Of a stretch of 41,098 nucleotides of DNA, positions 5,711 to 32,041 are shown piece by piece. Every line of letters starts with the position of its first letter. Position 1 is the first letter of the stretch. The stretch is from a virus. The stretch lies in UHGV virus genome UHGV-0386433; one strand, 5' to 3'. A program made the position numbers and the translations under genes. Under the pieces are notes generated by a model that was not told the origin of the DNA, searched no databases, and saw only the letters and a list, made by a program, of their open reading frames with translations.

Positions 5711-6109
5711 GTGGAGCTTACACCAAAGCAGAAAGCGTTTGCGGATTATTACATAGAATGCGGGAATGCGGCAGAAGCTGCAAGAAAGGCTGGTTACAGC
5801 TTACGGACAGCAGACGCAATAGGGCGTGAAAACTTACGGAAGCCTACGGTTTCTGCATATATCTCTGAGCGACAGAAACAGATTGATGATTGCCGCATAG
5901 CTGATGCCGCTGAAATACTGCAATACCTTACGTCTGTAATGCGCGGAGAAGTAAAAGACCAATTCGGACTTGATGCTCCGCTGGCAGAGAGGACCAAAGC
6001 GGCGGTGGAACTGGCAAAGCGTAAAATAGATACAGACAAGAAGCAGGAGGGCGGCGGGATTACCATTGTCAACAACATACCAAGAACAGACAACAATAAA
6101 TCTGACTGA
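5711..6109 (+). CDS. terS: Terminase small subunit (P27/Terminase_2-like).
   Basis: N-terminal pattern LTPKQKAFADYYIECGNAAEAARKAGYS. Sits immediately upstream of the large subunit. Confidence 0.8.
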   Translation: MELTPKQKAFADYYIECGNAAEAARKAGYSLRTADAIGRENLRKPTVSAYISERQKQIDDCRIADAAEILQYLTSVMRGEVKDQFGLDAPLAERTKAAVELAKRKIDTDKKQEGGGITIVNNIPRTDNNKSD

Positions 6110-7325
6110 TGTAATCGCTCCTTCCTTCTATGGCGTTCATTGGGATATCCTGGACAACAATCATACATATTATGACCTTTACGGTGGGCGCGGTTCCACA
6201 AAGTCCTCTTTCATATCTGTTGAAATCATACTGGGAATGATGGATGACCCAGAGGCCAATGCGGTAGTGTTTCGTAAGTACGCCGTAACCATCGGAGAAT
6301 CAGTATTTGAACAGATACAGTGGGCCATAGACGCGCTAGGAGTAACAGATTTATGGGAATCCCGCACAAGCCCATATAGATTCGTTTATAAGCCAACGGG
6401 GCAAAAGATAATATTCCGTGGACTTGATAAGGCCAAGAAAACAAAGTCTATAAAGGCCAGTAAAGGATATTTTAAATACCTATGGTTCGAGGAACTGGAC
6501 GAATTTGCAGGACCGGAGGAAATACGAACTGTTGAACAGTCAGTATTGCGTGGCGGAAGCAAGTTTGTTGTATTTAAATCATTTAACCCTCCTATCAGTC
6601 AAAGCAACTGGGCTAATCAGTATGTAAATACGCCGGATGATAGCGCATGCAGGCATAAAAGCGATTACCGTTCTGTACCGGAAGAATGGTTAGGAGAAAT
6701 GTTTATTGAGCGCGCAGAACATCTTAAGACTACCAATGAGCGGGCATATAACCATGAGTATTTAGGATTACCTGTTGGGCTTGGTACAAATATATTTGAC
6801 ATGCTGGATATACGGACCATTACAGATGATGAAATCAAGGGATACCAAAGCGTTTACCAGGGACAGGACTGGGGATGGTTCCCGGACCCAAAAGCATTTA
6901 TCCGGGCTGCATACATACCGAACAAGGAAATGGTTGTGCTGCTTGATGAAATGGGAGGCTGCAAAATTCGTAACAGTAAGATGGCGGAGGATATACAGAC
7001 GGCTGGGTACGATGATTATACAATCTATTGCGGAGTGGATGAAGAAGAAAGCATTATAGACTTCCGTGACGCTGGTTTACCGGCCCGCAGAGCCATTGTA
7101 ACGCCAGGAAGCAGGAAATATACCTTTGAGTGGTTGCAGTGCCGTACAATCGTTATAGACCCGGCACGTACGCCACGGGCATACAAGGAAATCATAGAAT
7201 ATGAGCATGAGGTTGATAGCAATGGCGAAGTGATAGCAGATTATCCAGATGGGAACGACCACTGGATTGACGCTCTCCGTTATGCTACAAGCCCGTTGTC
7301 AATGAGAAGGGGGAACAGTGCATGA
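6066..7325 (+). CDS. terL: Terminase large subunit (PBSX/Terminase_3-like).
   Basis: Walker-A-like GGRGSTKS, ATPase and nuclease-region motifs. 419 aa between terS and portal. The start is uncertain (TTG 6066). Confidence 0.9.
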   Translation: MSTTYQEQTTINLTDVIAPSFYGVHWDILDNNHTYYDLYGGRGSTKSSFISVEIILGMMDDPEANAVVFRKYAVTIGESVFEQIQWAIDALGVTDLWESRTSPYRFVYKPTGQKIIFRGLDKAKKTKSIKASKGYFKYLWFEELDEFAGPEEIRTVEQSVLRGGSKFVVFKSFNPPISQSNWANQYVNTPDDSACRHKSDYRSVPEEWLGEMFIERAEHLKTTNERAYNHEYLGLPVGLGTNIFDMLDIRTITDDEIKGYQSVYQGQDWGWFPDPKAFIRAAYIPNKEMVVLLDEMGGCKIRNSKMAEDIQTAGYDDYTIYCGVDEEESIIDFRDAGLPARRAIVTPGSRKYTFEWLQCRTIVIDPARTPRAYKEIIEYEHEVDSNGEVIADYPDGNDHWIDALRYATSPLSMRRGNSA

Positions 7326-7547: not shown

Positions 7548-8981
7548 ATGGGACTAATAACATGGGCTAAAAAGGTGATAGGAATGATATTCAAGCGACA
7601 GGCAGAAGAAGATTTTAATGTTGAGTCAGTAGTATCCCCGGAGATGGAAAGCAAGATTGCAGAGTGCGCCAATATCTACCGGGGTACTCCCTATTGGGTG
7701 AATGCTGACGATAACGTTAAGACAATCAATTTTGCAAAGGCTATATGCTCCGAGACGGCCCGGCTTGCCACGTTGGCTATTGGGATACAGATTGATGGGA
7801 GTGCGCGGGCGACATGGCTCCAGGAGCAGATTGATAAGATATATTTCCAGATTAGACATTGGGTAGAATATGGTATGGCCTACGGTACAATTATACTAAA
7901 GCCAAACGGTAAAGGACTGGACATATTCACACCGCAAGATTTTATTATTACAGACTGCGACAACGAAGGTATATATGGGATTGTGTTTAAGGATAGCTAC
8001 AGCGAAAACAAGAAATATTACACCCGGTTTGAATATCATAGGTTTGTTGAGGTCAAAGATGGAGACAATAACTATTATCCCTATTACATATCCAATAAAG
8101 CCTATGTTTCAAGCTCGGCAAACAGCTTAGGCGACCCTATTCCATTAAACAGAACTAAATGGGCGGACCTTATGCCGGAAACCCCGCCCATTTTAAAATC
8201 AAATGACGGAAAACTGGATGGTCCCATGTTTGGCGTACTCCGTACTCCACAGGCTAACAATGTGGATATTTCATCACCTTTGGGATTGCCAATGTTCACA
8301 GAAGCAATCGAGGAATTAAAAGACCTTGATGTAGCATACAGCCGAAATGTTGGTGAAATATTTGACAGTGAGAAAATTATATTGGTGGACGACCAGCTGA
8401 TGTTTGGAAGCGGCACAAACATTAAGGGGCGTTATGCTGGTATGAGCAACGAAAAGCTTCCTCATTATGTAAAAAATGTATTTGGAAATGGAACGGAATA
8501 TTTCTATCGGGAGATTGTTCCATCATTGAATACTGATACCAGAATTACTGGAATAAATAACCTACTCTCGTTTGTGGGATTTAAGTGTGGATATTCTAAT
8601 GGGTATTTTGTGCTTGATGAAAAGACAGGTATGGTCACAGCAACACAGGTAGAAGCTGATGACCGGAGGACCATACAGCTAATCAAGGATGTGCGCGACA
8701 AACTGGAAAGTTGTCTTGATGGGGCAATATATGCACTTAATGTATATGCTGATTTGTACGTACTGGCACCGCCAGGAAACTATGAAATAACATATGATTT
8801 TGGGGACATTACATACAACCGAGAAGAGGACCGGGCAAGATGGTGGCTGTATGTTGTGCAAGGAAAGGTGCCGGCCTGGATGTATTTCCAGAAGTTTGAA
8901 GGGTTATCCGAAGAAGATGCGAAAGCTATGGTGCAGGAAGCGCAGCCGAAGGAGAGTCCGAGGATGTTTGGGGAGGAATAG
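7548..8981 (+). CDS. Portal protein (SPP1 Gp6-like).
   Basis: 477 aa, placed directly after the terminase genes, with a portal-like sequence. Confidence 0.85.
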   Translation: MGLITWAKKVIGMIFKRQAEEDFNVESVVSPEMESKIAECANIYRGTPYWVNADDNVKTINFAKAICSETARLATLAIGIQIDGSARATWLQEQIDKIYFQIRHWVEYGMAYGTIILKPNGKGLDIFTPQDFIITDCDNEGIYGIVFKDSYSENKKYYTRFEYHRFVEVKDGDNNYYPYYISNKAYVSSSANSLGDPIPLNRTKWADLMPETPPILKSNDGKLDGPMFGVLRTPQANNVDISSPLGLPMFTEAIEELKDLDVAYSRNVGEIFDSEKIILVDDQLMFGSGTNIKGRYAGMSNEKLPHYVKNVFGNGTEYFYREIVPSLNTDTRITGINNLLSFVGFKCGYSNGYFVLDEKTGMVTATQVEADDRRTIQLIKDVRDKLESCLDGAIYALNVYADLYVLAPPGNYEITYDFGDITYNREEDRARWWLYVVQGKVPAWMYFQKFEGLSEEDAKAMVQEAQPKESPRMFGEE

Positions 8982-8983
8982 AT

Positions 8984-9277
8984 ATGGAAACATTAAAATT
9001 AAAAATCGAGAAACAGCATATCGAAAACATTTCTCCGCAACTATATCTCGTAGCAGGAACACAAAACTACCTCGAATGTGATTTTCAATTCGATACATCA
9101 TGGGTTGGATATAACAAGGTAGCTGTGTTTGAACAGAAATACTATGTTCCGATATTTGGTAATCGATGTCGTGTCCCGGATGATGTGGCACGGTTAAAAA
9201 GATTCTCCGTAAGGATAGTTGGGGAAAAGAAGGATGTAAGAAATGTAACGGATTTCGCAGTAATAGACCAGAGGTGA
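8984..9277 (+). CDS. Hypothetical protein.
   Basis: ORF translationally coupled to the portal gene. Confidence 0.45.
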   Translation: METLKLKIEKQHIENISPQLYLVAGTQNYLECDFQFDTSWVGYNKVAVFEQKYYVPIFGNRCRVPDDVARLKRFSVRIVGEKKDVRNVTDFAVIDQR

Positions 9278-9283
9278 CAATAC

Positions 9284-11941
9284 ATGTATACTAATAATTT
9301 GGATGATGCGTTTTCAGCATTTGCATCAGGCGCAACAGAAGAATGGGTAAAAAGTGATAAATACATGGATTATCCAGAATATCACGATGAAGAGTATACC
9401 TATATCGAAGGACGTACAATTGGTGATATTACTGCGCAGGTATCAGTGCAGGGAGAAGCATACAGCCAGTATATATCTTTTATGATAGATAGATACTATG
9501 ATGGAATTGATTTGATTGGAATGTCTATATGGATACACTATGAATTAAAAGATGGAAGCGGCAGCGAAGATAGTCCAGTGAATGTAATGTATAACGATAG
9601 TGCTATCAGATTTGGGTGGGTTATACCAGAAAAGGCGACGCAACAGTCAGGAGACATTAAGATTGGTGTATGGGTGAATGGTACAGCGCCGAATACAAAA
9701 GCGTATATATTAAAGACAGAAGAAAAGATATATACAATACATCCGGGGTTAATTCCAGGGTCTGGTATTACACAGCCAGACCAGAATTGGTTTGAGAATT
9801 TTGTTGTCCAAATGGATAATAAGGTATCCACCGCCCAGGGTTACGCGGATGATGCCCAGGCCAGTAGAACGGACGCTGCCGGTTCCGCTACGGCTGCTGC
9901 CCAGTCAGCCACCGCATCGGCACAGGCGTTACAGGATAATAAGGCCTACGTGGGCTATAACAAGCGGGAGACCGACCTTAAGTACGCCAATGCCCTGGTC
10001 GGGTCCGCATCCGGTATGGGAGGGGTTACGGTGGGGGATGCATGGGAAGCGCCGATACCCGGCATGGATATATCCGGTAAGAGTGAGCAGTTTTCTACGA
10101 CCGGGGCGCAGTTGCTGGACTTGAGCGCAATAAATAAGAGCGCAGCCGGAGCCGTTGTCAACTATGCTGATGGAGGTTACAGCATATCTGGTATAGGAGC
10201 ATTGACTGCTTCTTTTACAGTGTCCTGCGACCTGGATATTAAAAAGATTCTAAAACCGGGAAATCTGATATTAAAAAGTGAACTAACAGTACCCAAACTG
10301 TATATACGCGTATGGAATGGAAGTACAGTGTTGATGGAATTTCAGGGGAACAGTACAAGGCAGATAACCCAAGAGATAATTGACAATGAAAATATACGTT
10401 TTGAATGCTTTTTATATTCAAACGCCGGAAATACCATCACGCCTGGAACTTATTATCCCATGCTGTACCAGGATGGTGACGGGACCTGGGAACCCTACAC
10501 CGGCGGCAAGCCATCCCCCAGCCCGGAGTATCCGCAGCCCATCAAGGGGACTGGAACGGTCAGTAGCGGGGCGCAGATTCTGGACTTAGTGGATAAAACA
10601 GTTAAGGTATATGGAATAACCATGACTCTCAAAGATGGTGTATCCAGCTTAAAAGGTACTGCAACAGGGAGCGCAACATTGTGGTATTTGGGCAGCTATT
10701 TGTCATCAGTTGTGTTATTTGTATTACCTCCGGGAACCTATACTGTCACGGATTGCCGGATATGGTGGTCGGATGGCACCACCAATGTAAGTAAACAAGG
10801 AACATTCACAATCGCAGAACCGTTTGAGGTCACAGGAATATCCACGGCTACTTATTCTACGGGGAGTGTAGTAGATGAGACATTGCGTCCCATGCTCAAC
10901 ACAGGAGCCGCACCAAAACCCTGGGAACCATATACAGGCGGCAAACCCAGCCCATCATCAGAGTATCCGCAACAGCTGGATGTGACGGTGACGGGTGCCA
11001 ATCTGGTTGATGCAAACAATTTAAAAACCATAAATATGTATGGGGTTACGATAAATAACAATGGTGATGGAAGTTTTACAGTTAAGGGTACCGCCACAGG
11101 ATACGTAACCAGTATTTATAACCTATCCTTATGTCCTGGAATGTATACAGTAAGCGGTGGAAAAAATAATACTCAGTTTTTTATACGTATCAGCAAAGAC
11201 GGTCAGACTTATTCTACTTATAAAAACTCTTTTGAGATAAAGGGTGATGAAGTTTGGATAAAGGCATATATCCAGGTGGATATAGGTATGACGGCAGATG
11301 ACACAATATGGCCCATGCTCAATGTTGGTGACACAGCCCTGCCCTGGCAGCCCTACCAGTCCTGCACCGCATCCATCACCCTGACAGAGCCGTTACGCGG
11401 TATCGGGGACCATAAGGATATGATAACCATGACTAAACGGATTGACAGGTGTGTAGAACTAGTCTTCGATGGGAGTGAGAATTGGGCGGCAATATCGACA
11501 TATGAAGGATTTTATTATGCAGGCATATTGCCATTTTCCGCTATGAGAAGGGCTGGCCTATGCAATCAATTTCCTGTGGATACAAAAGGAGACGCGATTG
11601 AATCTGTCAGAATTGGTAATGGTAATTCTGTATTGTTCTGCGTATATAGCCGTTTTTACGATGATGCAGCCGCAGACAAGGGCCTTTCCGCCTGGAAAGC
11701 CCATCTTGCCGTCCATCCACTCAAGGTAGTCACATATCTGGACACCTCGGTAGAGACAGACCTGGATGCAACCACTGTTGCTGCCCTGAACGCCCTTACC
11801 ACTTACACCGGCACCACCCATGTCACCGTAACCGCAGGAGGGCCGGAACCGGATGTGGGGATGGGGTACGCGCAGGATACAAACGTTGTGATTGCTGAGT
11901 TAAAAAAACTGATAGAAGGAATGCAAAATGCTAAGTCCTAA
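9284..11941 (+). CDS. Large BppU-like receptor-binding/tail-fibre-type protein (885 aa). It has a BppU_N-like N-terminus, an Ala-rich linker (AQASRTDAAGSATAAAQSATASAQALQ) and three ~140-aa C-terminal repeats (PMLxxG...PWEPYTGGKPSPSPEYPQ).
   Basis: Protein motifs seen directly. DNA-level repeats start near 10486, 10921 and 11341. GC-rich patch 9830-10130. The gene sits between the portal and MuF-like genes. Confidence 0.65.
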   Translation: MYTNNLDDAFSAFASGATEEWVKSDKYMDYPEYHDEEYTYIEGRTIGDITAQVSVQGEAYSQYISFMIDRYYDGIDLIGMSIWIHYELKDGSGSEDSPVNVMYNDSAIRFGWVIPEKATQQSGDIKIGVWVNGTAPNTKAYILKTEEKIYTIHPGLIPGSGITQPDQNWFENFVVQMDNKVSTAQGYADDAQASRTDAAGSATAAAQSATASAQALQDNKAYVGYNKRETDLKYANALVGSASGMGGVTVGDAWEAPIPGMDISGKSEQFSTTGAQLLDLSAINKSAAGAVVNYADGGYSISGIGALTASFTVSCDLDIKKILKPGNLILKSELTVPKLYIRVWNGSTVLMEFQGNSTRQITQEIIDNENIRFECFLYSNAGNTITPGTYYPMLYQDGDGTWEPYTGGKPSPSPEYPQPIKGTGTVSSGAQILDLVDKTVKVYGITMTLKDGVSSLKGTATGSATLWYLGSYLSSVVLFVLPPGTYTVTDCRIWWSDGTTNVSKQGTFTIAEPFEVTGISTATYSTGSVVDETLRPMLNTGAAPKPWEPYTGGKPSPSSEYPQQLDVTVTGANLVDANNLKTINMYGVTINNNGDGSFTVKGTATGYVTSIYNLSLCPGMYTVSGGKNNTQFFIRISKDGQTYSTYKNSFEIKGDEVWIKAYIQVDIGMTADDTIWPMLNVGDTALPWQPYQSCTASITLTEPLRGIGDHKDMITMTKRIDRCVELVFDGSENWAAISTYEGFYYAGILPFSAMRRAGLCNQFPVDTKGDAIESVRIGNGNSVLFCVYSRFYDDAAADKGLSAWKAHLAVHPLKVVTYLDTSVETDLDATTVAALNALTTYTGTTHVTVTAGGPEPDVGMGYAQDTNVVIAELKKLIEGMQNAKS

Positions 11942-13145
11942 TTATCTACAGCATATAGCAGATGGAAGTGAAGAAATATCCTCGCAGTTACATACATACA
12001 TTATCCAACAGGTAGTTGACCGCATGATGATACGTATGGGTCGCGGTGAAGATTACCTGCTAACCTCCTCTGACCGATGGCGCATACAGATATTACAGGA
12101 TGCAGGATATCTGCTGGAGGATATAACGGCAGAGTTATCCAAAATCACTAAGCGACAGGAAAAAGAAATCAAGGCCGCAATGGAAGAAGCGGGAGTCAAG
12201 GCCCTGGAATACGACCATAAAATATATGAAGCTGCTGGTTTATCTCCAATTCCTCTTACTCAATCTCCGCAGCTTATCCGACTGATGGAACGAAACATGG
12301 ATGCAACAATGGGAGAGTGGGAAAACTATACCAGAACGACCGCAGAAGCCGCACAAAGGCTTTTTATAAACGAATGTGATAATGCATACCACCTTGTATC
12401 CTCTGGGGCTGTATCTTACACACAGGCCGTCAAAGAGGCAGTTAATAATGTGGTATCGGGCGGAGTAATAGTACAATATCCTTCGGGCCACAAAGATACC
12501 ATAGAAACTGCCACAGCGCGCGCAGTACGCACCGGAGTAGCCCAGGCCACGGGAGATATCTCTATTAAGCGTATGGAAGAAATGGACTGGGATATCATAC
12601 TGGTGTCGGCGCACATCGGGGCCAGAACCGGGGATGGAGGTCAGAATCCAGGAAATCATTTATGGTGGCAAGGGCAGTTTTACAGCAGGACTGGAAAGGA
12701 TAAGCACTTTCCTCCGTTTTCCCAGACTGGATACGGAACAGGTGAAGGGTTATGTGGATGGAACTGCCGCCATTCCTTCGGAAGCGGTGATGGGGTAAAC
12801 AATCCATACAAAGACATCCAAACCGCAGACAATTACAAGGTTGAGCAGCTGGAGAAGCGGCAGCGAACGCTTGAACGGCGCATCAGAAAGACCAAACGCG
12901 AGGTCATGGGGATGCAGGAGGCCGTGGATAAATGCAAGGACGAATCAGTTAAATTTGAAATGCAGTTAGACCTTGACCGCAAGTCGTATCTGTTACAGCG
13001 GCAGAATAAGGCATATAACGAATTTTGTAAAGAAAACGACTTACGCACCCAGCAAGAACGGTTACAGATTGCCAGATGGAACCGGGAGCAGGCGGCAAAG
13101 GCTAGGGGAGCAGCGCGGCGGTATCAGAATGTGAAAGGGAATTAA
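11928..13145 (+). CDS. Head morphogenesis protein (SPP1 gp7/Phage_Mu_F-like) with a coiled-coil C-terminus.
   Basis: Mu F-like motifs (PPF...GYGTGEGLCGWNCRHSFG). Confidence 0.8.
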   Translation: MLSPNYLQHIADGSEEISSQLHTYIIQQVVDRMMIRMGRGEDYLLTSSDRWRIQILQDAGYLLEDITAELSKITKRQEKEIKAAMEEAGVKALEYDHKIYEAAGLSPIPLTQSPQLIRLMERNMDATMGEWENYTRTTAEAAQRLFINECDNAYHLVSSGAVSYTQAVKEAVNNVVSGGVIVQYPSGHKDTIETATARAVRTGVAQATGDISIKRMEEMDWDIILVSAHIGARTGDGGQNPGNHLWWQGQFYSRTGKDKHFPPFSQTGYGTGEGLCGWNCRHSFGSGDGVNNPYKDIQTADNYKVEQLEKRQRTLERRIRKTKREVMGMQEAVDKCKDESVKFEMQLDLDRKSYLLQRQNKAYNEFCKENDLRTQQERLQIARWNREQAAKARGAARRYQNVKGN

Positions 13146-13331
13146 ATGAACGAAATTAATTTTAATGACGTTCCCAAGGATGAAACATGGGAAATTCCGA
13201 AAGAAGTAATAAATTACTATATGCGGAGTAATTATAGAGAAAAGGAAATACCTTTGAATATTTCTATCTGTAAAGAAATATTTGATATTTTAAAAATGGA
13301 GAATAGAAATGAGCAGATGGAAACCATATAA
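13146..13331 (+). CDS. Hypothetical protein (AT-rich).
   Basis: ORF at the start of the cargo island. Confidence 0.4.
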   Translation: MNEINFNDVPKDETWEIPKEVINYYMRSNYREKEIPLNISICKEIFDILKMENRNEQMETI

Positions 13332-13689
13332 TCCAAATCCTAAAAATGCCCGCGTAGGTGACTGTCCCATCCGGGCTATAACCAAAGCCCTAGATAGCGA
13401 CTGGGAAACGGTATTTGCCGGAGTGACTGTATGTGCGTGTGCTCTATCTGATATGCCATCAGCCAATCATGTGTGGGGTGCATACCTACGTCAAAATGGG
13501 TTTAAACGGCACATAGTGGATGACCACGGACAAGATGTATACACGGTCGAGGACTTTTGCCAAGATAATCCTATGGGAACATACATTTTAGCAATTACGG
13601 GGCATGTGGTGTGCGTGCAGGATGGTTATTACTGGGACACATGGGATAGTGGGCAGGAGATACCAATATACTACTGGGAAAGGCGATAA
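13309..13689 (+). CDS. Peptidase C39-like/papain-fold cysteine peptidase domain protein (126 aa).
   Basis: N-terminal VGDCPIRAIT (Cys motif) with C-terminal GHVVCVQDG...DTWDSG (His, Asp), in the Cys-His-Asp order of C39-like domains. Confidence 0.45.
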   Translation: MSRWKPYNPNPKNARVGDCPIRAITKALDSDWETVFAGVTVCACALSDMPSANHVWGAYLRQNGFKRHIVDDHGQDVYTVEDFCQDNPMGTYILAITGHVVCVQDGYYWDTWDSGQEIPIYYWERR

Positions 13690-13690
13690 C

Positions 13691-13996
13691 ATGGACTTGA
13701 TGGAGTTTGTAAAAACGGTTTTAGCAATATTTGGAGCAATATCTGTTTTGGGTGGAGGATTTGCAGTAATCCATAAATGGATATCTCCTGCCATTAAAAT
13801 GAATAAAAGAGTAGAGATATTAGAGGAGCACGATAAGCGGGACTACGATGTAATGAAGAAGTATGCTGAAAGAGACTCACTTATCCTTGAAGTGTTATTA
13901 ACTATGCTTGACAGCCAAATTGCGGGGCCTGGAAGCAACCTTGAACAGTTAAAAAAAACGAGAGAAAAACTTATTTTGTATCTTGCGCAGAAATAA
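13691..13996 (+). CDS. Membrane protein (N-terminal TM helix, coiled C-terminus).
   Basis: Hydrophobic segment VLAIFGAISVLGGGFAVI. ATG follows the upstream TAA. Confidence 0.45.
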   Translation: MDLMEFVKTVLAIFGAISVLGGGFAVIHKWISPAIKMNKRVEILEEHDKRDYDVMKKYAERDSLILEVLLTMLDSQIAGPGSNLEQLKKTREKLILYLAQK

Positions 13997-14004
13997 TAAG
14001 AGGT

Positions 14005-14211
14005 GTGTTTTTGAAAGTATATGACTTTACGGTGCCGGAGTTAAACTATTTCCGTACATACTGCAATTTCACAAATGATGAGCGGCAGCTATTTGAATTA
14101 CGTTCACAGAACATGCCGCTGGAACAATGTGCAGAAAAAATGAATGTCAGCGTGTCCACGGCAAAAAGATTGAGCCGAAAAGTCAACAATAAAATAATTA
14201 GAGTATGCTGA
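14005..14211 (+). CDS. Small sigma-70 region-4-like/ArpU-like HTH regulator (68 aa).
   Basis: C-terminal FTNDERQLFELRSQNMPLEQCAEKMNVSVSTAKRLSRKVNNKI resembles sigma region 4.2. Starts at GTG 14005 or TTG 14011 after AAGAGG. Confidence 0.5.
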   Translation: MFLKVYDFTVPELNYFRTYCNFTNDERQLFELRSQNMPLEQCAEKMNVSVSTAKRLSRKVNNKIIRVC

Positions 14212-14237
14212 TACTTGCATGATACTTTTATAAGTCT

Positions 14238-14275
14238 TTGACGACCTGTCAAGGGCTTATTTTTTATGGGATAAT
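14238..14275 (+). promoter_or_regulatory. Candidate promoter: extended -10 TGgGATAAT (14267-14275) and upstream TTGACG (14238-14243).
   Basis: Sequence match only. Lies in the 92-bp gap upstream of the PQ-rich gene. Confidence 0.3.
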
Positions 14276-14303
14276 TAGAATATAAAAGAACGGAGGGGAT
14301 ATA

Positions 14304-14774
14304 ATGCCGCAACCATTTATCAATCCAAACTATCTTAATGCATATCCAAACGCATACCCGTATCAACCGCAGATGCAACCGCCTATGGACCGATTGCAGC
14401 AGCTACAGGCACCATACCAGATGCCACAGCAGACACAAATACCGCAGGTCCCACAGACCAACCAGGGAATATTGTGGGTGCAGGGAGAAGCCGGAGCTAA
14501 GTCATATTTAGTAGCGCCCAGCACATCCATATTGCTGATGGACAGTGAGAATGAGTATTTTTATATTAAGACAACCGATGCGGCAGGTATGCCAACGCTT
14601 CGTACTTTTGAATATAAAGAGATTGTCAATGGTCAGAAAAAAGAATCTGTACCGGCTGAGAATCTGGATGAAAAATATGTTACTAGAAACGAGTATCTGG
14701 ATTTGAAAACAAAATACGATGAGTTATATGTACTCTTAGAATCCAGCACGGCACCAAGCGGAAAGGGGAAGTAA
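14304..14774 (+). CDS. Hypothetical protein with a Pro/Gln-rich low-complexity N-terminus.
   Basis: RBS GGAGGGG precedes ATG 14304. Confidence 0.55.
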   Translation: MPQPFINPNYLNAYPNAYPYQPQMQPPMDRLQQLQAPYQMPQQTQIPQVPQTNQGILWVQGEAGAKSYLVAPSTSILLMDSENEYFYIKTTDAAGMPTLRTFEYKEIVNGQKKESVPAENLDEKYVTRNEYLDLKTKYDELYVLLESSTAPSGKGK

Positions 14775-14777
14775 TAT

Positions 14778-15035
14778 ATGAATCCATTATTTAACATGTT
14801 AGGTGGAATGGGTGGAGGTAGCCCAATGGGTGGAATGATGCCGGGGATGGGTGGAGGAAATAACCCCATGCAGATGATACAGAAATTCATGGAATTTAAA
14901 AACAATTTCAAAGGCAATCCACAGGAAGAAGTACAGAAGATGCTACAGTCAGGGCAGATTACGCAGGACCAGCTTAATCAAGCCCAGCAGATGGCCCAGC
15001 AGTTTCAGCAGATGCTTGGAGGCATGAAAAAATAG
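14778..15035 (+). CDS. Hypothetical Gly/Met/Gln-rich low-complexity protein (85 aa).
   Basis: MLGGMGGGSPMGGMMPGMGGG ... QAQQMAQQFQQM. Confidence 0.5.
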   Translation: MNPLFNMLGGMGGGSPMGGMMPGMGGGNNPMQMIQKFMEFKNNFKGNPQEEVQKMLQSGQITQDQLNQAQQMAQQFQQMLGGMKK

Positions 15036-15088
15036 TACATAAATCAATGCGCATGATTTTGTAAATAAATTTAAAGGAGTAAATATTT

Positions 15089-15796
15089 ATGGAAAGTGGT
15101 TACTCTTTAGCGGACATTGCAGCCGCTACAGGAAACGGAAATAACAGAAATGGTGATGGTATGTGGGGCGATTGGATTTGGATTATCGTTCTCTTCCTGT
15201 TTGCCGGCGGCTGGGGCAATGGCAACGGCTGGGGTAATAACGGGTCAGGAGGTGCCGGATTGCAGGGATTAGCAACACGCGCAGACATTAACGAGGGGTT
15301 TGCCCTCAATGGAATCGAAAATGGTATAAGGGGGATTCAGCAGGGCATTTGTGATAGCACGTATGCGCTGAACAACACCATTACCAGCGGATTCAACGGT
15401 GTTGACCGCAGCTTATGCCAGATGGGATATCAGCTCCAGGATTGCTGCTGCCAGACACAGCGCGCAATTGATGGCGTAAACTACAACCTGGCTACACAGT
15501 CCTGTGATACCAGGAACACAATCCAGAATGCCACAAGGGATTTACTGGATAACAACAACAGCAATACCAGGGCTATCCTTGACTTCTTAACTCAGGATAA
15601 GATTTCCAGCCTTCAGGCAGAAAATCAGACCCTTCGGTTCCAGGCAAGCCAGACTGCCCAGAATGGCTTTATTGACGCAGTCGGTAACACCATCGTTGCA
15701 CAGCTTCGTCAGCCGCAGCCTGTACCGGCCTATACGGTTCCGGCTCCATATCCTTATGCGTCCGGTTGCGGCTGTAACGGCGGTTGTGGCTGTTAA
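15089..15796 (+). CDS. Hypothetical Gly/Asn-rich membrane protein (235 aa) with one TM helix (WIWIIVLFLFAGG) and a Cys-rich tail (GCGCNGGCGC).
   Basis: RBS AAAGGAG. Composition read from the sequence. Confidence 0.55.
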   Translation: MESGYSLADIAAATGNGNNRNGDGMWGDWIWIIVLFLFAGGWGNGNGWGNNGSGGAGLQGLATRADINEGFALNGIENGIRGIQQGICDSTYALNNTITSGFNGVDRSLCQMGYQLQDCCCQTQRAIDGVNYNLATQSCDTRNTIQNATRDLLDNNNSNTRAILDFLTQDKISSLQAENQTLRFQASQTAQNGFIDAVGNTIVAQLRQPQPVPAYTVPAPYPYASGCGCNGGCGC

Positions 15797-16029
15797 TGCG
15801 AAATGAACAGTTTTATGATAATTTAGCCATATATGCTACTGCACTGCAAATGATAGACCTATTACTATTGATGGGTGATGTTACTAACTCAGATATATTA
15901 GAGGCACTACAGCAACAGAATAAGGAATATATGGAAAAGATTATCGCTCAGAATGACAAGATACTTTTATTGCTGGAAAATTCACATGAATGTTCTTGTC
16001 AAAGTAAAACTTCCACCAAAAAGGTGTGA
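15796..16029 (+). CDS. Hypothetical protein (77 aa).
   Basis: ATG overlaps the upstream stop (TAATG). Confidence 0.4.
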   Translation: MRNEQFYDNLAIYATALQMIDLLLLMGDVTNSDILEALQQQNKEYMEKIIAQNDKILLLLENSHECSCQSKTSTKKV

Positions 16030-16037
16030 TTCTTAAA

Positions 16038-16066
16038 GGGGTGGAGAAATCCACCTCTTTTTATTT
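16038..16066 (+). terminator. Rho-independent terminator: GGGGTGGA-gaaa-TCCACCTC followed by TTTTTATTT.
   Basis: 8-bp stem with one G-U pair, a 4-nt loop and a U-tract. Directly followed by RBS AAGGAGG and ATG 16081. Confidence 0.7.
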
Positions 16067-16080
16067 AAGGAGGACTTAAT

Positions 16081-16518
16081 ATGTTTTGTAGAAGAACAGA
16101 ATACGTGAATTACAATATGAGAATGCAGTTACTTAAAACTGTAGAGGTTGCAGTTGATGGCGGGGAAATCGTTCTTGTTGTCCCAAGAGCAATCTTTTCT
16201 AATTATGAAAACGTATTATTGTGTATTACCCAGAGTATCCCATATAGTGCAGACAATGAATCAGTATACATCCAGGCTGGTTACTCAGTTGGGGGAAGCT
16301 CGCCAGAACGTTATCAGATTCGTGATACTAATGGGAATACGGTATACTCCTACCAGTTAAGGCCGCGAAAATTATATAGACTGATTGCAAATCAGAATGA
16401 AGAAGGTTTTGTAATCAATCCATGTAATCTTGAGCATAACGGTACGATACTGGCAAGGGTAGCCCCAACAACGCCGCCAGCAAATTCAGGAGATGCGGGA
16501 AAGGAAGGTAATGCATAA
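16081..16518 (+). CDS. Hypothetical protein (145 aa).
   Basis: Strong RBS AAGGAGG. Confidence 0.55.
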   Translation: MFCRRTEYVNYNMRMQLLKTVEVAVDGGEIVLVVPRAIFSNYENVLLCITQSIPYSADNESVYIQAGYSVGGSSPERYQIRDTNGNTVYSYQLRPRKLYRLIANQNEEGFVINPCNLEHNGTILARVAPTTPPANSGDAGKEGNA

Positions 16519-17060
16519 TGCGTGATATGGAAAGGTTATTAGAAAAAATCTGCGAAGAGCTTGACAAGATTGCAGAAAAAGGGCTGAATACCGGGAATCT
16601 GGAAACTGCCTATAAACTTATCGATATGTATAAGGACCTCAAAAATACTGAGTATTGGGAGGTAAAGGAAGCTTATTACATGGAGGATATGGGAATATTG
16701 GGTGGATATAGTGAATCCCGTAGACGTGATAGCAGGGGAAGGTATAGCCGCGCTGATGGTCGTATGTCGCCGGACTACGATATGGATAGTTCATACCGTG
16801 GTACGCGCGGAAAACATTATGTAAGGGGCCACTACAGCCGTGCAAATGGTCCCGATGCATATGATGATTACATGAATCAGAAACAGTCTTACCGCTCCGG
16901 TGGAAAAGATGAAGAGTGCAAACGGCGTATGCTGTCTGCATTAGAGGAACATATGGACATGTTGACCGAAGAATTAGGAGATTTAGCAAAAGATGCTGAT
17001 TGTCGCGAAGAACGGGAAACGATGAAGCGGTATATTGAAAAGCTTCGCAATGTGATGTAA
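16518..17060 (+). CDS. Hypothetical protein (180 aa) with an Arg/Tyr/Asp/Ser-rich central region.
   Basis: ATG overlaps the upstream stop. Confidence 0.5.
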   Translation: MRDMERLLEKICEELDKIAEKGLNTGNLETAYKLIDMYKDLKNTEYWEVKEAYYMEDMGILGGYSESRRRDSRGRYSRADGRMSPDYDMDSSYRGTRGKHYVRGHYSRANGPDAYDDYMNQKQSYRSGGKDEECKRRMLSALEEHMDMLTEELGDLAKDADCREERETMKRYIEKLRNVM

Positions 17061-17066
17061 TGCATT

Positions 17067-17092
17067 GGCGGCGGGGAAAACCTGCCGCCTTT
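17067..17092 (+). terminator. Candidate weak terminator: hairpin GGCGGCGGG-gaaaa-CCTGCCGCC followed by TTT.
   Basis: 9-bp stem with one mismatch and a short U-run. Confidence 0.35.
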
Positions 17093-17165
17093 GTAAAATG
17101 TGGGGACGATTGTTTTTTATAAATACTGTAAAATAGGAGTAGGAATAGACAGAAAGGGTGAAAAC

Positions 17166-17351
17166 ATGGTAAAAGACGGTTGGGTATATTGCCCCATATG
17201 TAACAACAAAACTCGCACAAAAATACGACCAGATACGGTAGCGAAAAACCTTCCAGTATTTTGTCCTGTATGCAAGAATACATCCTTGATGAATATTGCA
17301 AAAGGAATAGCAAGTGATGTGGAAAAAGGCAGTTTATTGCCTGCCACATAA
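17166..17351 (+). CDS. Cysteine-rich KTR zinc-ribbon protein (61 aa; CPICNNKTRTKI...CPVCKN).
   Basis: CxxC-KTR...CPxCK pattern typical of the Cys_rich_KTR family. The ORF lies 56 bp downstream of the second AAATGTGGGGACGATT copy. Confidence 0.55.
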   Translation: MVKDGWVYCPICNNKTRTKIRPDTVAKNLPVFCPVCKNTSLMNIAKGIASDVEKGSLLPAT

Positions 17352-17620
17352 TAATTAGAGCCAGTCGCCAGTCGCAGAGCCATGCAGATTACAGAAATGT
17401 AGTTTGTGTGGCTTTTACTTATATTTGACCTCCCTCCTATAGCACATGTCCTTAACAGAAACAGGTCCTATCGCCTAACGCAAACGGCCTGGAGGTTGAA
17501 AAGCGGATGCAATTTCCGGCATGTGCGTTTTAGGACACGCCAAGTCCTACAAAATGGCAAACCGTTGGTGGACGGTTACACACCTATAAATAACCTAATA
17601 ACGGAAAAGGAGAATCATCA

Positions 17621-18238
17621 ATGAAAACCGAAGAATTAAAAGCACAGGGATTGACAGAGGAACAGATATCTTTTGTCATGGCTGAAAATGGGAAAGACCT
17701 TAAAAAGTTGCAGAAGGAAAATGACAATCTGACTACTGACCGGGATACCTGGAAAGAAAAAGCAGAAGCAGCCGAAACAACACTGAAAGGCTTTGAAGGG
17801 GTTGACCTGGAGACAATGCAGAAAGAACTGTCTGACTGGAAACAGAAAGCTACAGAAGCCGAAAAGAGCGCCCAGGCACAGCTTTATGAACGTGATTTTG
17901 CAGATGCGCTTAAAACAGAATTTGAGGGTATTAAGTTTTCCAGCGAGGCGGCTAAACGTGCAATCATGGCAGAAGTAAAAGAGGCCGGATTAAAGCTGAA
18001 GGACGGTAAAATCTTGGGGCTGAATGACCTTATAGGCCAGATGAAAGAAAAGGATGCTTCGGCATTTGTTGATGATGCGCAGCAGCAAATACAGCAGAAC
18101 ATGGCAAGGTTTACTGCTCCTAAAAAATCGGGTAGTTCTGGCACCATGAATAAAGATGAGATTATGGCTATCAAGGACCGAAGTGAACGGCGCGCCGCAA
18201 TAGCTCAAAACATGCATTTATTTGAAGGAGAAAAATAA
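17621..18238 (+). CDS. Scaffolding protein.
   Basis: Acidic, highly alpha-helical/coiled-coil 205-aa protein immediately upstream of the major capsid gene. RBS AAAAGGAG. Confidence 0.7.
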   Translation: MKTEELKAQGLTEEQISFVMAENGKDLKKLQKENDNLTTDRDTWKEKAEAAETTLKGFEGVDLETMQKELSDWKQKATEAEKSAQAQLYERDFADALKTEFEGIKFSSEAAKRAIMAEVKEAGLKLKDGKILGLNDLIGQMKEKDASAFVDDAQQQIQQNMARFTAPKKSGSSGTMNKDEIMAIKDRSERRAAIAQNMHLFEGEK

Positions 18239-19690: not shown

Positions 19691-19954
19691 ATGGACATTA
19701 CAACGTTGGGAACATGTGTGGCTATTGTGGCCCTGAGCTATGTGGTCGGCCTTGGATGCAAGGCAGCAAAGAAGATACCGGACGAATGGATTCCGGTCAT
19801 TATGGCTGTTGTGGGTGGCGTTCTGGGCGCGCTTGGTATGGGAACAATCCCAGACTTCCCAGCATCGGATTATATCACAGCTGTGGCAGTCGGTGCTGTG
19901 TCTGGCCTGGCGGCTACAGGAGTTAACCAGATGTATAAACAGATGAATAAATAA
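19691..19954 (+). CDS. Holin-like small membrane protein (87 aa, three predicted TM helices, Lys-rich C-terminus).
   Basis: Hydrophobic segments LGTCVAIVALSYVVGLGC, IPVIMAVVGGVLGALGMG and YITAVAVGAVSGLAATGV, then NQMYKQMNK. Confidence 0.45.
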   Translation: MDITTLGTCVAIVALSYVVGLGCKAAKKIPDEWIPVIMAVVGGVLGALGMGTIPDFPASDYITAVAVGAVSGLAATGVNQMYKQMNK

Positions 19955-31172: not shown

Positions 31173-31298
31173 ATGTATACAACGTTAAAAAGGTTATATA
31201 ACAATGGAAAAGGGCCATTAACCGTTGATGAGCTTAACCGGGCTGTATTACTTGGATGGATTACAGAGCAGCAGAAAAACAGTATAATTGGAGGATGA
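31173..31298 (+). CDS. XkdX-family small phage protein (41 aa; LKRLYNNGKGPLTVDELNRAVLLGWITEQQ).
   Basis: Matches the XkdX pattern (W..Y..G.YT.E.V...V..G.IT.E). Not in the track. Confidence 0.5.
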   Translation: MYTTLKRLYNNGKGPLTVDELNRAVLLGWITEQQKNSIIGG

Positions 31299-31300
31299 TT

Positions 31301-32041
31301 ATGAGAGATATCACATTGTGTCATCCACGCTTACAGCTTTTAGCAGGTCAGTTAGTGGATGAATGTAATAAACAGGGATTAAAAATTAAGATAGGCGAAA
31401 CATTGCGAACTGTGGCAGAACAGGATGCGTTATATGCTCAGGGCAGGACTAAACCGGGGAACATTGTAACTAATGCTCCAGGCAGTAGCTACAGCTCATA
31501 TCATCAGTGGGGTACTGCCTTTGATATCTTCCGCAATGACGGAGCTGGAGCTTATAATGAAATTGGTGGATTTTTTAACCGTGTAGGTGCTATCGGTGTA
31601 TCTTTGGGACTTGAATGGGGTGGAAATTGGAAGTCTCCTGTGGACAAGCCACATTTCCAATTGCCGGATTGGGGAAGTAGCACATCTGGAATCAAGAAAC
31701 TATATCGCACCCCGGATGAATTTATGAAAACCTGGGTGACAGAGGGACGCACTGGCTGGATTAAGGATAATAACGGCTGGTGGTACCGCAGACCAGATGG
31801 AACTTACCCGGCTAATAAGTGGTGTGTCATAAATCACCATTGGTATCTGTTTAACAAAGACGGATATGCTTGCACCAGCTGGCACCGCTGGAATGGAAGT
31901 GCATGTGACCCGGATGATGGTTCGGGGGATTGGTATTACTTTGACCCTACACCAGACGGTCCATTGGAGGGGGCGTGCTGGCATAGCCAGGACAATGGGG
32001 CATTGGATGTCTGGTACATAGAGGATTCTAATTCAATATAA
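31301..32041 (+). CDS. Endolysin with an N-terminal M15-family (VanY/CwlK-like) zinc peptidase domain and C-terminal CW_binding_1-type repeats.
   Basis: Motif SSYHQWGTAFD (H-x6-D) plus upstream LYAQGRTKPGNIVTNAPG. C-terminal W...NG.WYY repeats. RBS GGAGGA precedes ATG 31301. Confidence 0.75.
   Translation: MRDITLCHPRLQLLAGQLVDECNKQGLKIKIGETLRTVAEQDALYAQGRTKPGNIVTNAPGSSYSSYHQWGTAFDIFRNDGAGAYNEIGGFFNRVGAIGVSLGLEWGGNWKSPVDKPHFQLPDWGSSTSGIKKLYRTPDEFMKTWVTEGRTGWIKDNNGWWYRRPDGTYPANKWCVINHHWYLFNKDGYACTSWHRWNGSACDPDDGSGDWYYFDPTPDGPLEGACWHSQDNGALDVWYIEDSNSI

Follow-up and report, generated by a model that had tools for sequence, protein, structure and literature searches.

A mobile late-operon cassette with a Cys-rich membrane protein as its hub in phages of gut Clostridia

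Morons are independently acquired accessory units in the late operons of phages. Single-pass membrane proteins with a large Cys-containing C-terminal domain are familiar from phage lysis, where the holin T of T4 and the i-spanins of the Rz type have this layout. In PBSX and SPbeta, small proteins of unclear role (XhlA, XepA/YomS) accompany the holin and endolysin genes, and XepA and YomS are examples of additional, non-enzymatic members of lytic cassettes (PMC6834076). Furthermore, papain-like C39 domains are part of the PCAT/AMS bacteriocin exporters, such as LahT150 (6mpz), PCAT1 (7s5j) and ComA (5xe8). Here we describe a gene cassette in the virus genome UHGV-0386433, a stretch of 41,098 nucleotides (the window) that spans the late region of a temperate tailed phage whose hosts are gut Clostridia. 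The cassette runs from position 13146 to about 17099, between the genes for a MuF-like protein and the scaffold protein, and no known system was found that it resembles. Its genes are numbered g1 to g9 here, with g7b behind g7; g5 to g9 form a core that recurs in many other phages, and the following gene, g10, is a neighbour.

Like morons, the cassette is present or absent between collinear relatives, is bordered by terminator-like hairpins and lies between late genes. However, it is much larger (5–9 genes), has overlapping gene ends and moves as a unit between unrelated lineages. The hub protein g7 shares with T4 holin T and Rz the gross layout of a short N-terminal tail, one membrane segment and a C-terminal domain of about 180 amino acids (aa), which has conserved cysteines and coiled-coil-like sequence as in these proteins, but there is no sequence or profile similarity to them. 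In addition, the window phage already has a canonical holin, and a spanin would have nothing to span because most of the hosts have a single membrane. The cassette contains no homolog of XhlA, XepA or YomS, and the copy in the window has no XhlA-type gene and lies away from the lysis genes. The C39 domains of the exporters are among the closest known systems to g2, which has the papain-like fold with the Gln(Asn)/Cys/His/Asp set; unlike them, g2 is a free-standing protein of 126 aa without a transporter nearby and without a Pfam C39 sequence match, and the putative substrate motif in the cassette is short and not invariant. DUF7841, a family which occupies one of the core positions in part of the loci, is itself uncharacterised.

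The evidence for an insertion comes from relatives with the same head module. IMG/VR contigs were sampled with MuF as anchor (59–96 % identical), and 66 of them reach more than 6 kb beyond the 3' end of MuF. The block is present in 52 of these, with a MuF–scaffold gap of 4.2–7.8 kb; the site is empty in 12, where the gap measures 180–1270 bp, and internal deletions of the block are found in two. The Blautia phage Montmirail has the same head module (portal 58 %, MuF 56 % identical) without the cassette, and its portal, MuF, a 40-aa open reading frame (ORF), scaffold and capsid genes follow one another directly. Empty as well as filled sites occur at a MuF identity of about 73–76 %, which argues for repeated gain or loss and not for one old split. 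These comparisons show that the block is a genuine insertion, present or absent within one head-module lineage. The G+C content does not differ between the block and its flanks. Two IMG/VR contigs with a MuF 95–96 % identical to that of the window, L181 and L191, are natural partial deletions of the cassette; g6 to g8 are gone from both, and g2, g4, g5, g9 and g10 are retained in L181 and g2, g4, g5 and g10 in L191.

The flanks in the window are the MuF/Phage_min_cap2 gene (11928–13145, profile match E 5e-76) and the scaffold gene (17621–18238, PF06810, E 1.7e-27), both as named in the original prediction, which was made from the sequence of the window. That prediction had counted a final Cys_rich_KTR gene, g10 (17166–17351 on the + strand, 17166 being the best start), among the inserted genes. 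The family assignment is right (PF14205, E 1.2e-18, 67.1 bits against a gathering cut-off of 25.5), but the gene lies outside the insert, as it is the sole gene between MuF and scaffold in six sampled relatives without the cassette (L204, L214, L215, L239, L240, L255). Downstream of g10 two structured RNAs, RAGATH-21 (17441–17527, +, Rfam 82.5 bits, cut-off 70.3) and GP20-b (17533–17597, +, Rfam 40.1 bits, cut-off 36.2), stand back to back in the 270-nt gap 5' of the scaffold gene. RAGATH-21 keeps this position in relatives whether or not they carry the cassette, and in some relatives a transfer RNA (tRNA) takes the place of GP20-b; the order at one empty site (L214) is MuF, Cys_rich_KTR, RAGATH-21, tRNA, scaffold. 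Together the two RNAs form a resident leader in front of the scaffold gene, and they delimit the insertion site on its downstream side. Since the Cys_rich_KTR gene and both RNAs reside in the spacer, the insert comprises 13146 to about 17099. This region is shown to be a horizontally mobile late-operon cassette that is dispensable for head building, and we hold its mobile and dispensable nature to be highly probable. The view of an inserted cargo block outside the capsid machinery, put forward in the original prediction, is thus borne out by the filled and empty sites and by the occurrence of the genes elsewhere in other phages.

Homologs of g7 were compared at 173 loci, 80 from IMG/VR, 80 from GTDB genomes and the rest from phage records and metagenome contigs. 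With genes called by tblastn plus an ORF caller weighted towards the + strand and then clustered, the core recurs in about 90 % of these loci in constant order and strand. Relative to g7, the g5 slot (about −840 bp) is filled in 155 loci by one family, the g6 slot (about −300 to −355 bp) in 149 by two, the g8 slot (about +840 to +860 bp) in 156 by two and the g9 slot (about +1100 to +1300 bp) in 156 by three families. Of the genomic contexts, the site between MuF and scaffold accounts for 27 loci, and a site on contigs of about 45–85 kb, with the major capsid or connector genes on one side and the head-closure genes on the other, for 44. In 26 loci an integrase gene follows directly downstream, and 76 loci have other contexts. 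Outside the head modules, at least 34 of the 71 loci that could be tested have a Pfam-validated holin or endolysin gene upstream, at a distance of up to 6 kb. An XhlA-type hemolysin gene precedes the cassette directly in 53 loci, an assignment that rests on PHROG 'hemolysin' families (the Pfam XhlA match, E 0.33, is not significant). In the annotated genomes of Dulem virus 33, bajarodcaudo virus 5, Clostridium phage XP41-N3 and Butyrivibrio virus Ceridwen, of which the last two are isolated phages, the cassette lies 3' of the lysis genes. The carriers belong mostly to the Lachnospiraceae, Oscillospiraceae, Acutalibacteraceae, Ruminococcus and Clostridium, groups that include the dominant Clostridia of the human gut, and some are metagenome-assembled genomes of Bacilli. 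A g7 homolog with 96 % identity is located on a contig of an uncultured Dorea sp. (L095), and Clostridium clostridioforme 90A6 has a g2 homolog with 94 % identity. Comparison of the cassette block with plasmids gave no match. The hub family itself is large: the matches of g7 form at least 7,998 clusters at 90 % identity, with no Pfam domain or name among them, and in an exhaustive HMMER search the family amounted to at least 1,743 clusters at 50 % identity, whose members measure 100–400 aa and have no fused domains.

The hub gene g7 (core gene 3, 15089–15796, +, phrog_16490, E 2e-60) encodes a Cys-rich, predicted single-pass membrane protein. Its conserved N-terminal tail leads into a transmembrane segment with Gly/Trp/Asn-rich sequence on either side; then come a helical region rich in Gln and Asn, which contains the conserved motif CCCxTQRAIDGVNYN, a stretch rich in Pro and, at the C-terminus, a CGC. 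The alignment contains invariant Cys residues. Upstream of it lie g5 (core gene 1, 14304–14774, +, phrog_21718, E 4.5e-47), whose N-terminus is rich in Pro, Gln and Tyr and is followed by a conserved domain (about 60 aa) and by a helix at the C-terminus, and g6 (core gene 2, 14778–15035, +, phrog_22984, E 9e-22), a small Gly/Met/Gln-rich protein of the form termed type 8. Core gene 5, g9 (16518–17060, +, phrog_28802, E 3e-61), starts within the end of g8 and is composed of a helix, an Arg/Tyr/Ser/Asp-rich disordered region and a second helix. Its type 6 is homologous to type 7 (hhalign 97.4 %), and no homology of the type 6 protein in the window to DUF7841 was detectable outside the low-complexity region. 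DUF7841 (PF25223) fills the g9 slot in 33 loci of Clostridia phages and has an Arg/Tyr/Asp-rich disordered region as in g9.

Core gene 4, g8 (16081–16518, +), encodes an all-beta protein whose model (predicted local distance difference test score, pLDDT, 66) gave no usable fold match. Its slot is occupied by type A in 91 loci and by type B in 65. The two types were considered as divergent homologs, but the hhalign probability is only 0.4 %, and we therefore take them as different proteins which share one slot. A suspected likeness of type B to the exosporium jelly-roll of BclA/BxpB found no support in Pfam and PDB profile searches. The window carries type A and phages with a MuF 91–96 % identical carry type B (e.g. 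L002 9510–9950), which, on sequence comparison, points to a recent swap of g8 within the cassette of the window.

In its gene arrangement the core consists of two end-overlapping pairs on either side of g7, with hairpins after g7 and g9. The ends of g5 and g6 overlap with a median gap of −4 nt, those of g8 and g9 with a median of −1 nt. The gap between g7 and g8 measures about 80 nt and nearly always contains a strong hairpin (the best one has a median of −17.4 kcal/mol over 119 loci); the median 3' of g9 is −20.3 kcal/mol over 123 loci. In the window, the strong internal terminator proposed at 16038–16066 corresponds to a terminator-like hairpin with U run at 16037–16060 (+, −17.5 kcal/mol), between the g7 unit and g8. 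A further one lies in the g4–g5 gap (14230–14260, +, −15.5 kcal/mol, z score −3.95). The 3'-terminal GC-rich hairpin of the cassette (17067–17089, +) exists as described, but it was called the weaker one and is the strongest (−25.2 kcal/mol, z score −6.8), with a poor U tract. A fourth hairpin is found at 17376–17415 (−23.8 kcal/mol). The candidate promoter at 14238–14275 did not stand up to comparison with shuffled sequence. It matches 9 of 12 consensus positions and overlaps the hairpin at 14230–14260; as the region has fewer promoter-like sites (11) than expected from shuffled sequence (18.6), such a match is no evidence of a promoter.

Two main forms of the cassette can be distinguished, and the presence of g2, the type of g6, the type of g9 and the N-terminal tail of g7 vary together. 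In type I, g2 is present, g6 is of type 8, g8 mostly of type B and g9 of type 6, and the tail of g7 reads YSLSDIAAxTG. In type II, g2 is absent, g6 is of type 3, g8 of type A and g9 of type 7 or DUF7841, and the tail reads DFATGYALG. The commonest full type I combination was found in 40 loci and, with g8 type A, in six more; for type II, the most frequent combinations have 49 and 21 loci. The cassette of the window is of type I but with g8 type A, and this form adds g4 and g2 to the core.

The type I accessory g2 (13309–13689, +, 126 aa) encodes a stand-alone papain-like cysteine peptidase of the C39 fold. The C39-like call in the original prediction is confirmed at the level of the fold by comparison of a confident structure model (pLDDT 95), with AvrPphB, staphopain and Josephin-type enzymes following closely. 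No match to Pfam (Peptidase_C39, C39_2) or NCBIfam was found at E values up to 1. Asn8, Cys19, His99 and Asp110 are each kept in 50 of 51 sequences, and going by the model the protein looks like an active C39-fold peptidase with an intact catalytic set. Stand-alone homologs of g2 also exist in Bacillus Tsamsa-like phages, in Geobacillus phage GBK2 and in Lak megaphages. The type 8 form of g6 begins with about ten residues of the pattern NP[LF][FY]xx[LM]GG (NPLFxxLGG), in which the Gly-Gly is present in 29 of the 51 g2-positive loci and replaced by GN, NG or RG in the rest. Fewer than half of the cassettes have g2. It occurs almost exclusively alongside g6 of the NPLFxxLGG type, and because of this co-occurrence it may process or bind g6 inside the cell.

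The remaining cassette genes are less constant. Directly after the stop of MuF lies g1 (13146–13331, +), an AT-rich putative ORF of 61 aa. It has no match in Pfam, PHROGs or NCBIfam and no tblastn match among 255 related loci, and unrelated small ORFs take its position in other phages. The variable accessory g3 (13691–13996, +, 101 aa) has an N-terminal transmembrane helix (hydrophobic window at residues 3–30) followed by a coiled coil, with homologs in close relatives only; elsewhere its slot holds an XhlA-type 'hemolysin' with a coiled coil and a C-terminal transmembrane segment (phrog_937, E 1e-14). The semi-conserved first gene of the cassette, g4 (14005–14211, +, 68 aa), consists only of a helix-turn-helix (HTH) like that of sigma-70 region 4. 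For this sigma-region-4-like call, g4 itself stays below the Pfam cut-off (Sigma70_r4_2, E 7e-5, 22.8 bits against 25.7), but it matches phrog_1190 (sigma factor, E 8e-7), and one protein of another family in the same slot passes Pfam Sigma70_r4 with 35.6 bits (cut-off 24.1). The g4 family is present in 66 loci, and two other small HTH families fill its slot in about 35 more. All ten ORFs of the original prediction were found with the compositions given there; an eleventh, g7b (15784–16029, +, 81 aa), was missing from its list. It is an accessory in some lineages, with homologs in the same position in about ten or more other loci (among them L005, L007, L015–L019, L022 and L060), including a C. 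perfringens phage, and has a weak match to DAM-like-phage2 (E 0.002). In 49 loci a small protein (about 127 aa) that contains the HExxH motif HELSHA is encoded about +2.0 kb from g7, often after g9 (e.g. L068 11991–12374). It is absent from the window, has no Pfam match and belongs to phrog_1233 (unknown function); judged by its motif it may be a metallopeptidase and a further optional member of the cassette.

Searches of all ten proteins against Pfam, NCBIfam and PADLOC matched only g4 (weakly) and g10, apart from two weak and partial PADLOC matches, DruE to g10 (9.3 bits) and Cas12c to g1. The latter (E 3.7e-4, 16.8 bits) covers 40 residues of a 968-position profile and was judged a spurious composition artefact. 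PDB-sequence profile searches with g2, g7, both g8 types, g9 and DUF7841 returned nothing significant. None of g1 to g9 matched a head-, tail- or lysis-family profile, in agreement with the earlier impression that no capsid components are among them, and with the exception of g4 their PHROG matches are of 'unknown function' or absent. No signal peptide was predicted in any cassette protein. Searches of the literature on DUF7841, the features of the cassette and XhlA-linked modules of Lachnospiraceae found nothing on the cassette genes.

Beyond the phages of Firmicutes, a partial version of the cassette is present in the crAss-like phage cr109_1. Its gp64 (L006 5644–6627) is a full-length homolog of g7 if two in-frame TAG codons are read as Gln, with the Gly/Trp-rich membrane segment, a perfect CCCTTQRSIDGVN motif and the C-terminal CGC. 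One of the TAG codons occupies the very position of the conserved Gln in the CCCxTQR motif, which indicates that TAG stands for Gln in the late genes of this phage. Many more in-frame stops are found in the genes near gp64. The upstream neighbour gp65 is a DUF7841 protein (hhalign 99.5 %), and a single gene, the lysis-regulator-like gp66, separates the pair from the holin gene upstream of it. The protein in the g8 position, gp63, showed no homology to g8 type A. The depositors annotated gp64 as 'outer capsid protein/viral fiber'.

Concerning the role of the cassette, the following sequence of events may be envisaged. The genes would be transcribed along with the late genes; g4 may modulate late transcription, and the hairpins may set the ratios of the products. 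The g7 protein would insert in the cytoplasmic membrane and recruit its soluble low-complexity partners through the conserved N-terminal tail, and g2 would trim or bind a cassette protein, the best candidate being the N-terminal NPLFxxLGG of g6. The resulting membrane-anchored complex would act on the cell envelope at the end of infection, as an accessory of lysis, release or exclusion and not as a part of the capsid. Such a late, membrane-anchored complex at the cell envelope is the explanation that we tentatively prefer overall. Of its parts, a membrane-anchored multi-protein complex is fairly probable, and an envelope role in lysis or release is a more doubtful proposition.

The co-variation of the g7 tail with g6 and g2 suggests contact on the cytoplasmic side, with which the missing signal peptides of the partners agree. 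In five unrelated phage backgrounds the cassette stands next to holin, endolysin and XhlA-type genes, and this repeated position points to an envelope role late in infection; the role is rated low because the end of the late operon is a generic landing site and 71 cassettes lie among structural genes. Within the portable unit g7 is counted as the sole membrane protein. Several observations weigh against this explanation. The membrane segment of g7 is short (about 14–17 hydrophobic residues) and in the window copy falls below a strict 19-residue Kyte-Doolittle threshold, and both of its flanks are net acidic and give no cue to its orientation. No cassette protein resembles a known holin, antiholin or spanin in sequence. 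In the window the cassette is not beside the lysis genes, as the holin gene follows 2.6 kb downstream and the endolysin gene is 14 kb away, and the position behind the lysis genes in other phages may merely be the end of the late operon, where insertions of any kind settle. The co-variation of the parts may reflect shared descent instead of physical contact. Finally, 71 of the 173 cassettes are situated between genuine structural genes, often near fibre-like genes, which would fit a role in the virion equally well.

The main rival explanation, which we consider unlikely, is a set of virion-associated accessory proteins: capsid cargo, ejection proteins or helpers of neck or head appendages. The membrane segment of g7 would then enter the membrane of the next host, the Arg-rich region of g9 would contact DNA and g2 would be a maturation protease. 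The constant co-orientation with late structural genes, the same 71 loci between head or connector genes, the fibre-like gene pair that often adjoins the cassette and the annotation of the crAss-like homolog by its depositors all speak for it. However, relatives without the cassette exist, including an isolated infectious phage, and the cassette often stands after the lysis genes and by the integrase gene, outside the structural modules. It brings its own sigma-r4-like regulator and terminator-like hairpins, and the filling of the g8 slot by two unrelated proteins would be unusual for a fixed structural contact. Expression from the prophage as a moron, for lysogenic conversion or superinfection exclusion, with g7 blocking incoming phage DNA and g4 as regulator, is quite improbable. 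The pattern of insertion and deletion is typical of morons, the unit is flanked by hairpins and has a possible, predicted extended −10 promoter, an integrase gene is the neighbour in 26 loci, and the carriers are mostly prophages of gut Clostridia. Against these points stand a promoter match no better than chance, the constant direction along the late operon with gene ends that overlap in the fashion of late operons, and the lack of a credible PADLOC defence match. Moreover, the cassette or its parts occur in Ceridwen, XP41-N3 and the crAss-like phage, for which no integrase is annotated in the genome stretches examined.

The original prediction had offered two readings of its own, a secreted-peptide module and a host-interaction or sporulation-associated cargo. 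A peptide-processing or bacteriocin-like module, in which the C39-like peptidase cleaves double-glycine leaders of exported Gly-rich precursors, would be in line with the fold and intact catalytic set of g2 and its co-occurrence with the NPLFxxLGG form of g6, but has very little in its favour beyond this. Neither an ABC exporter nor any other transporter is encoded in the window or among the recurrent neighbours of the 173 loci, and g2 is neither fused to a transporter nor matched by Pfam C39. In addition, the putative leader of g6 comprises about ten residues instead of the usual 15–30, its Gly-Gly is variable as described above, the proteins have no predicted signal peptides, and a peptidase missing from most cassettes is optional; this reading thus appears very unlikely. 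Cargo that joins or alters the spore coat of the host was suggested by the Cys-, Tyr-, Gly- and Gln-rich proteins. Their composition recalls coat and exosporium proteins, and the hosts are mostly Clostridia. The idea is scarcely credible and largely refuted by the distribution: the cassette is present in a Butyrivibrio phage and g7 with its DUF7841 partner in a crAss-like phage, and both Butyrivibrio and the host of the crAss-like phage are taken here as non-spore-formers. Besides, no spore-family match was obtained in Pfam or NCBIfam and no PDB sequence relative for g8 type B. A role of the cassette in host interaction is possible. On the whole the observation in the original prediction was largely right, and it is sharpened here to a widespread five-gene cassette with optional peptidase and sigma-r4 genes.

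In the surroundings of the cassette, the genes for the large terminase (6066–7325) and the portal (7548–8981) precede MuF; the major capsid protein, the tail genes and the endolysin follow 3' of the scaffold gene, and an integrase is encoded on the minus strand. Between portal and MuF lies the fibre-like pair orf97 and orf885 (97 and 885 aa; 8984–11941, +). It is a second accessory insertion, since portal and MuF are adjacent in Montmirail. A repeated '...EPYTGGKPSPSxEYPQ...' motif characterises orf885. Homologs of the pair are located about 2.3–2.7 kb 3' of g7 in 21–37 loci, just downstream of the cassette, and in L044 the homolog combines a GDSL/SGNH esterase domain with a match to a tail-fibre PHROG. 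A host-binding fibre is the probable identity of the pair. The holin gene of the window (19691–19954, Phage_holin_5_2, E 2.7e-22) stands amid head–tail connector genes, about 11 kb 5' of the endolysin gene (31256–32041), and is likewise embedded in relatives and in the lineage of 45–85 kb contigs. GP20-b has been described as a predicted cis-regulatory RNA 5' of GP20 genes (PMC10690425); in the window it precedes the PF06810 scaffold gene. Genes for tRNAs are found just 5' of scaffold in L008 (11773–11982), where they replace the structured RNAs, and beside the RNAs in L214 (9737–9810), L217 (9863–9936) and L255 (9512–9584). A RAGATH-31 RNA lies directly 5' of the cassette and just 3' of the endolysin gene in L033 (1247–1299), and RAGATH-18 is located 5' of a tail gene in Ceridwen (L012 1635–1707).

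A bolder version of the proposed role, to which we assign a low probability, is that the core represents a previously unrecognised late-stage machine of Clostridia phages, shared in part by crAss-like phages, in which a layer or condensate would grow from g7 on the inside of the membrane. Three low-complexity proteins, g5 (rich in Pro/Gln/Tyr), g6 (rich in Gly/Met/Gln) and g9 (rich in Arg/Tyr), would form this layer on the Cys-rich g7 anchor, and it would organise particle assembly, time lysis or drive release, outside the scheme of holin, endolysin and spanin. In type I, the dedicated C39-fold peptidase g2 would serve as its maturation switch. Unrelated phages keep acquiring the unit, always in the late operon, so that it presumably confers a general advantage late in infection. 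The core proteins have no characterised relative, Pfam family or solved structure despite the at least 1,743 clusters of the hub family. Natural phages with and without the cassette share a head module, cultured hosts carry closely related prophages, and L181 and L191 are usable as natural cassette mutants. Knowledge of what the cassette does would annotate a large part of the dark matter of the gut virome, and a so far unseen step in lysis, release or the function of the particle could come to light.

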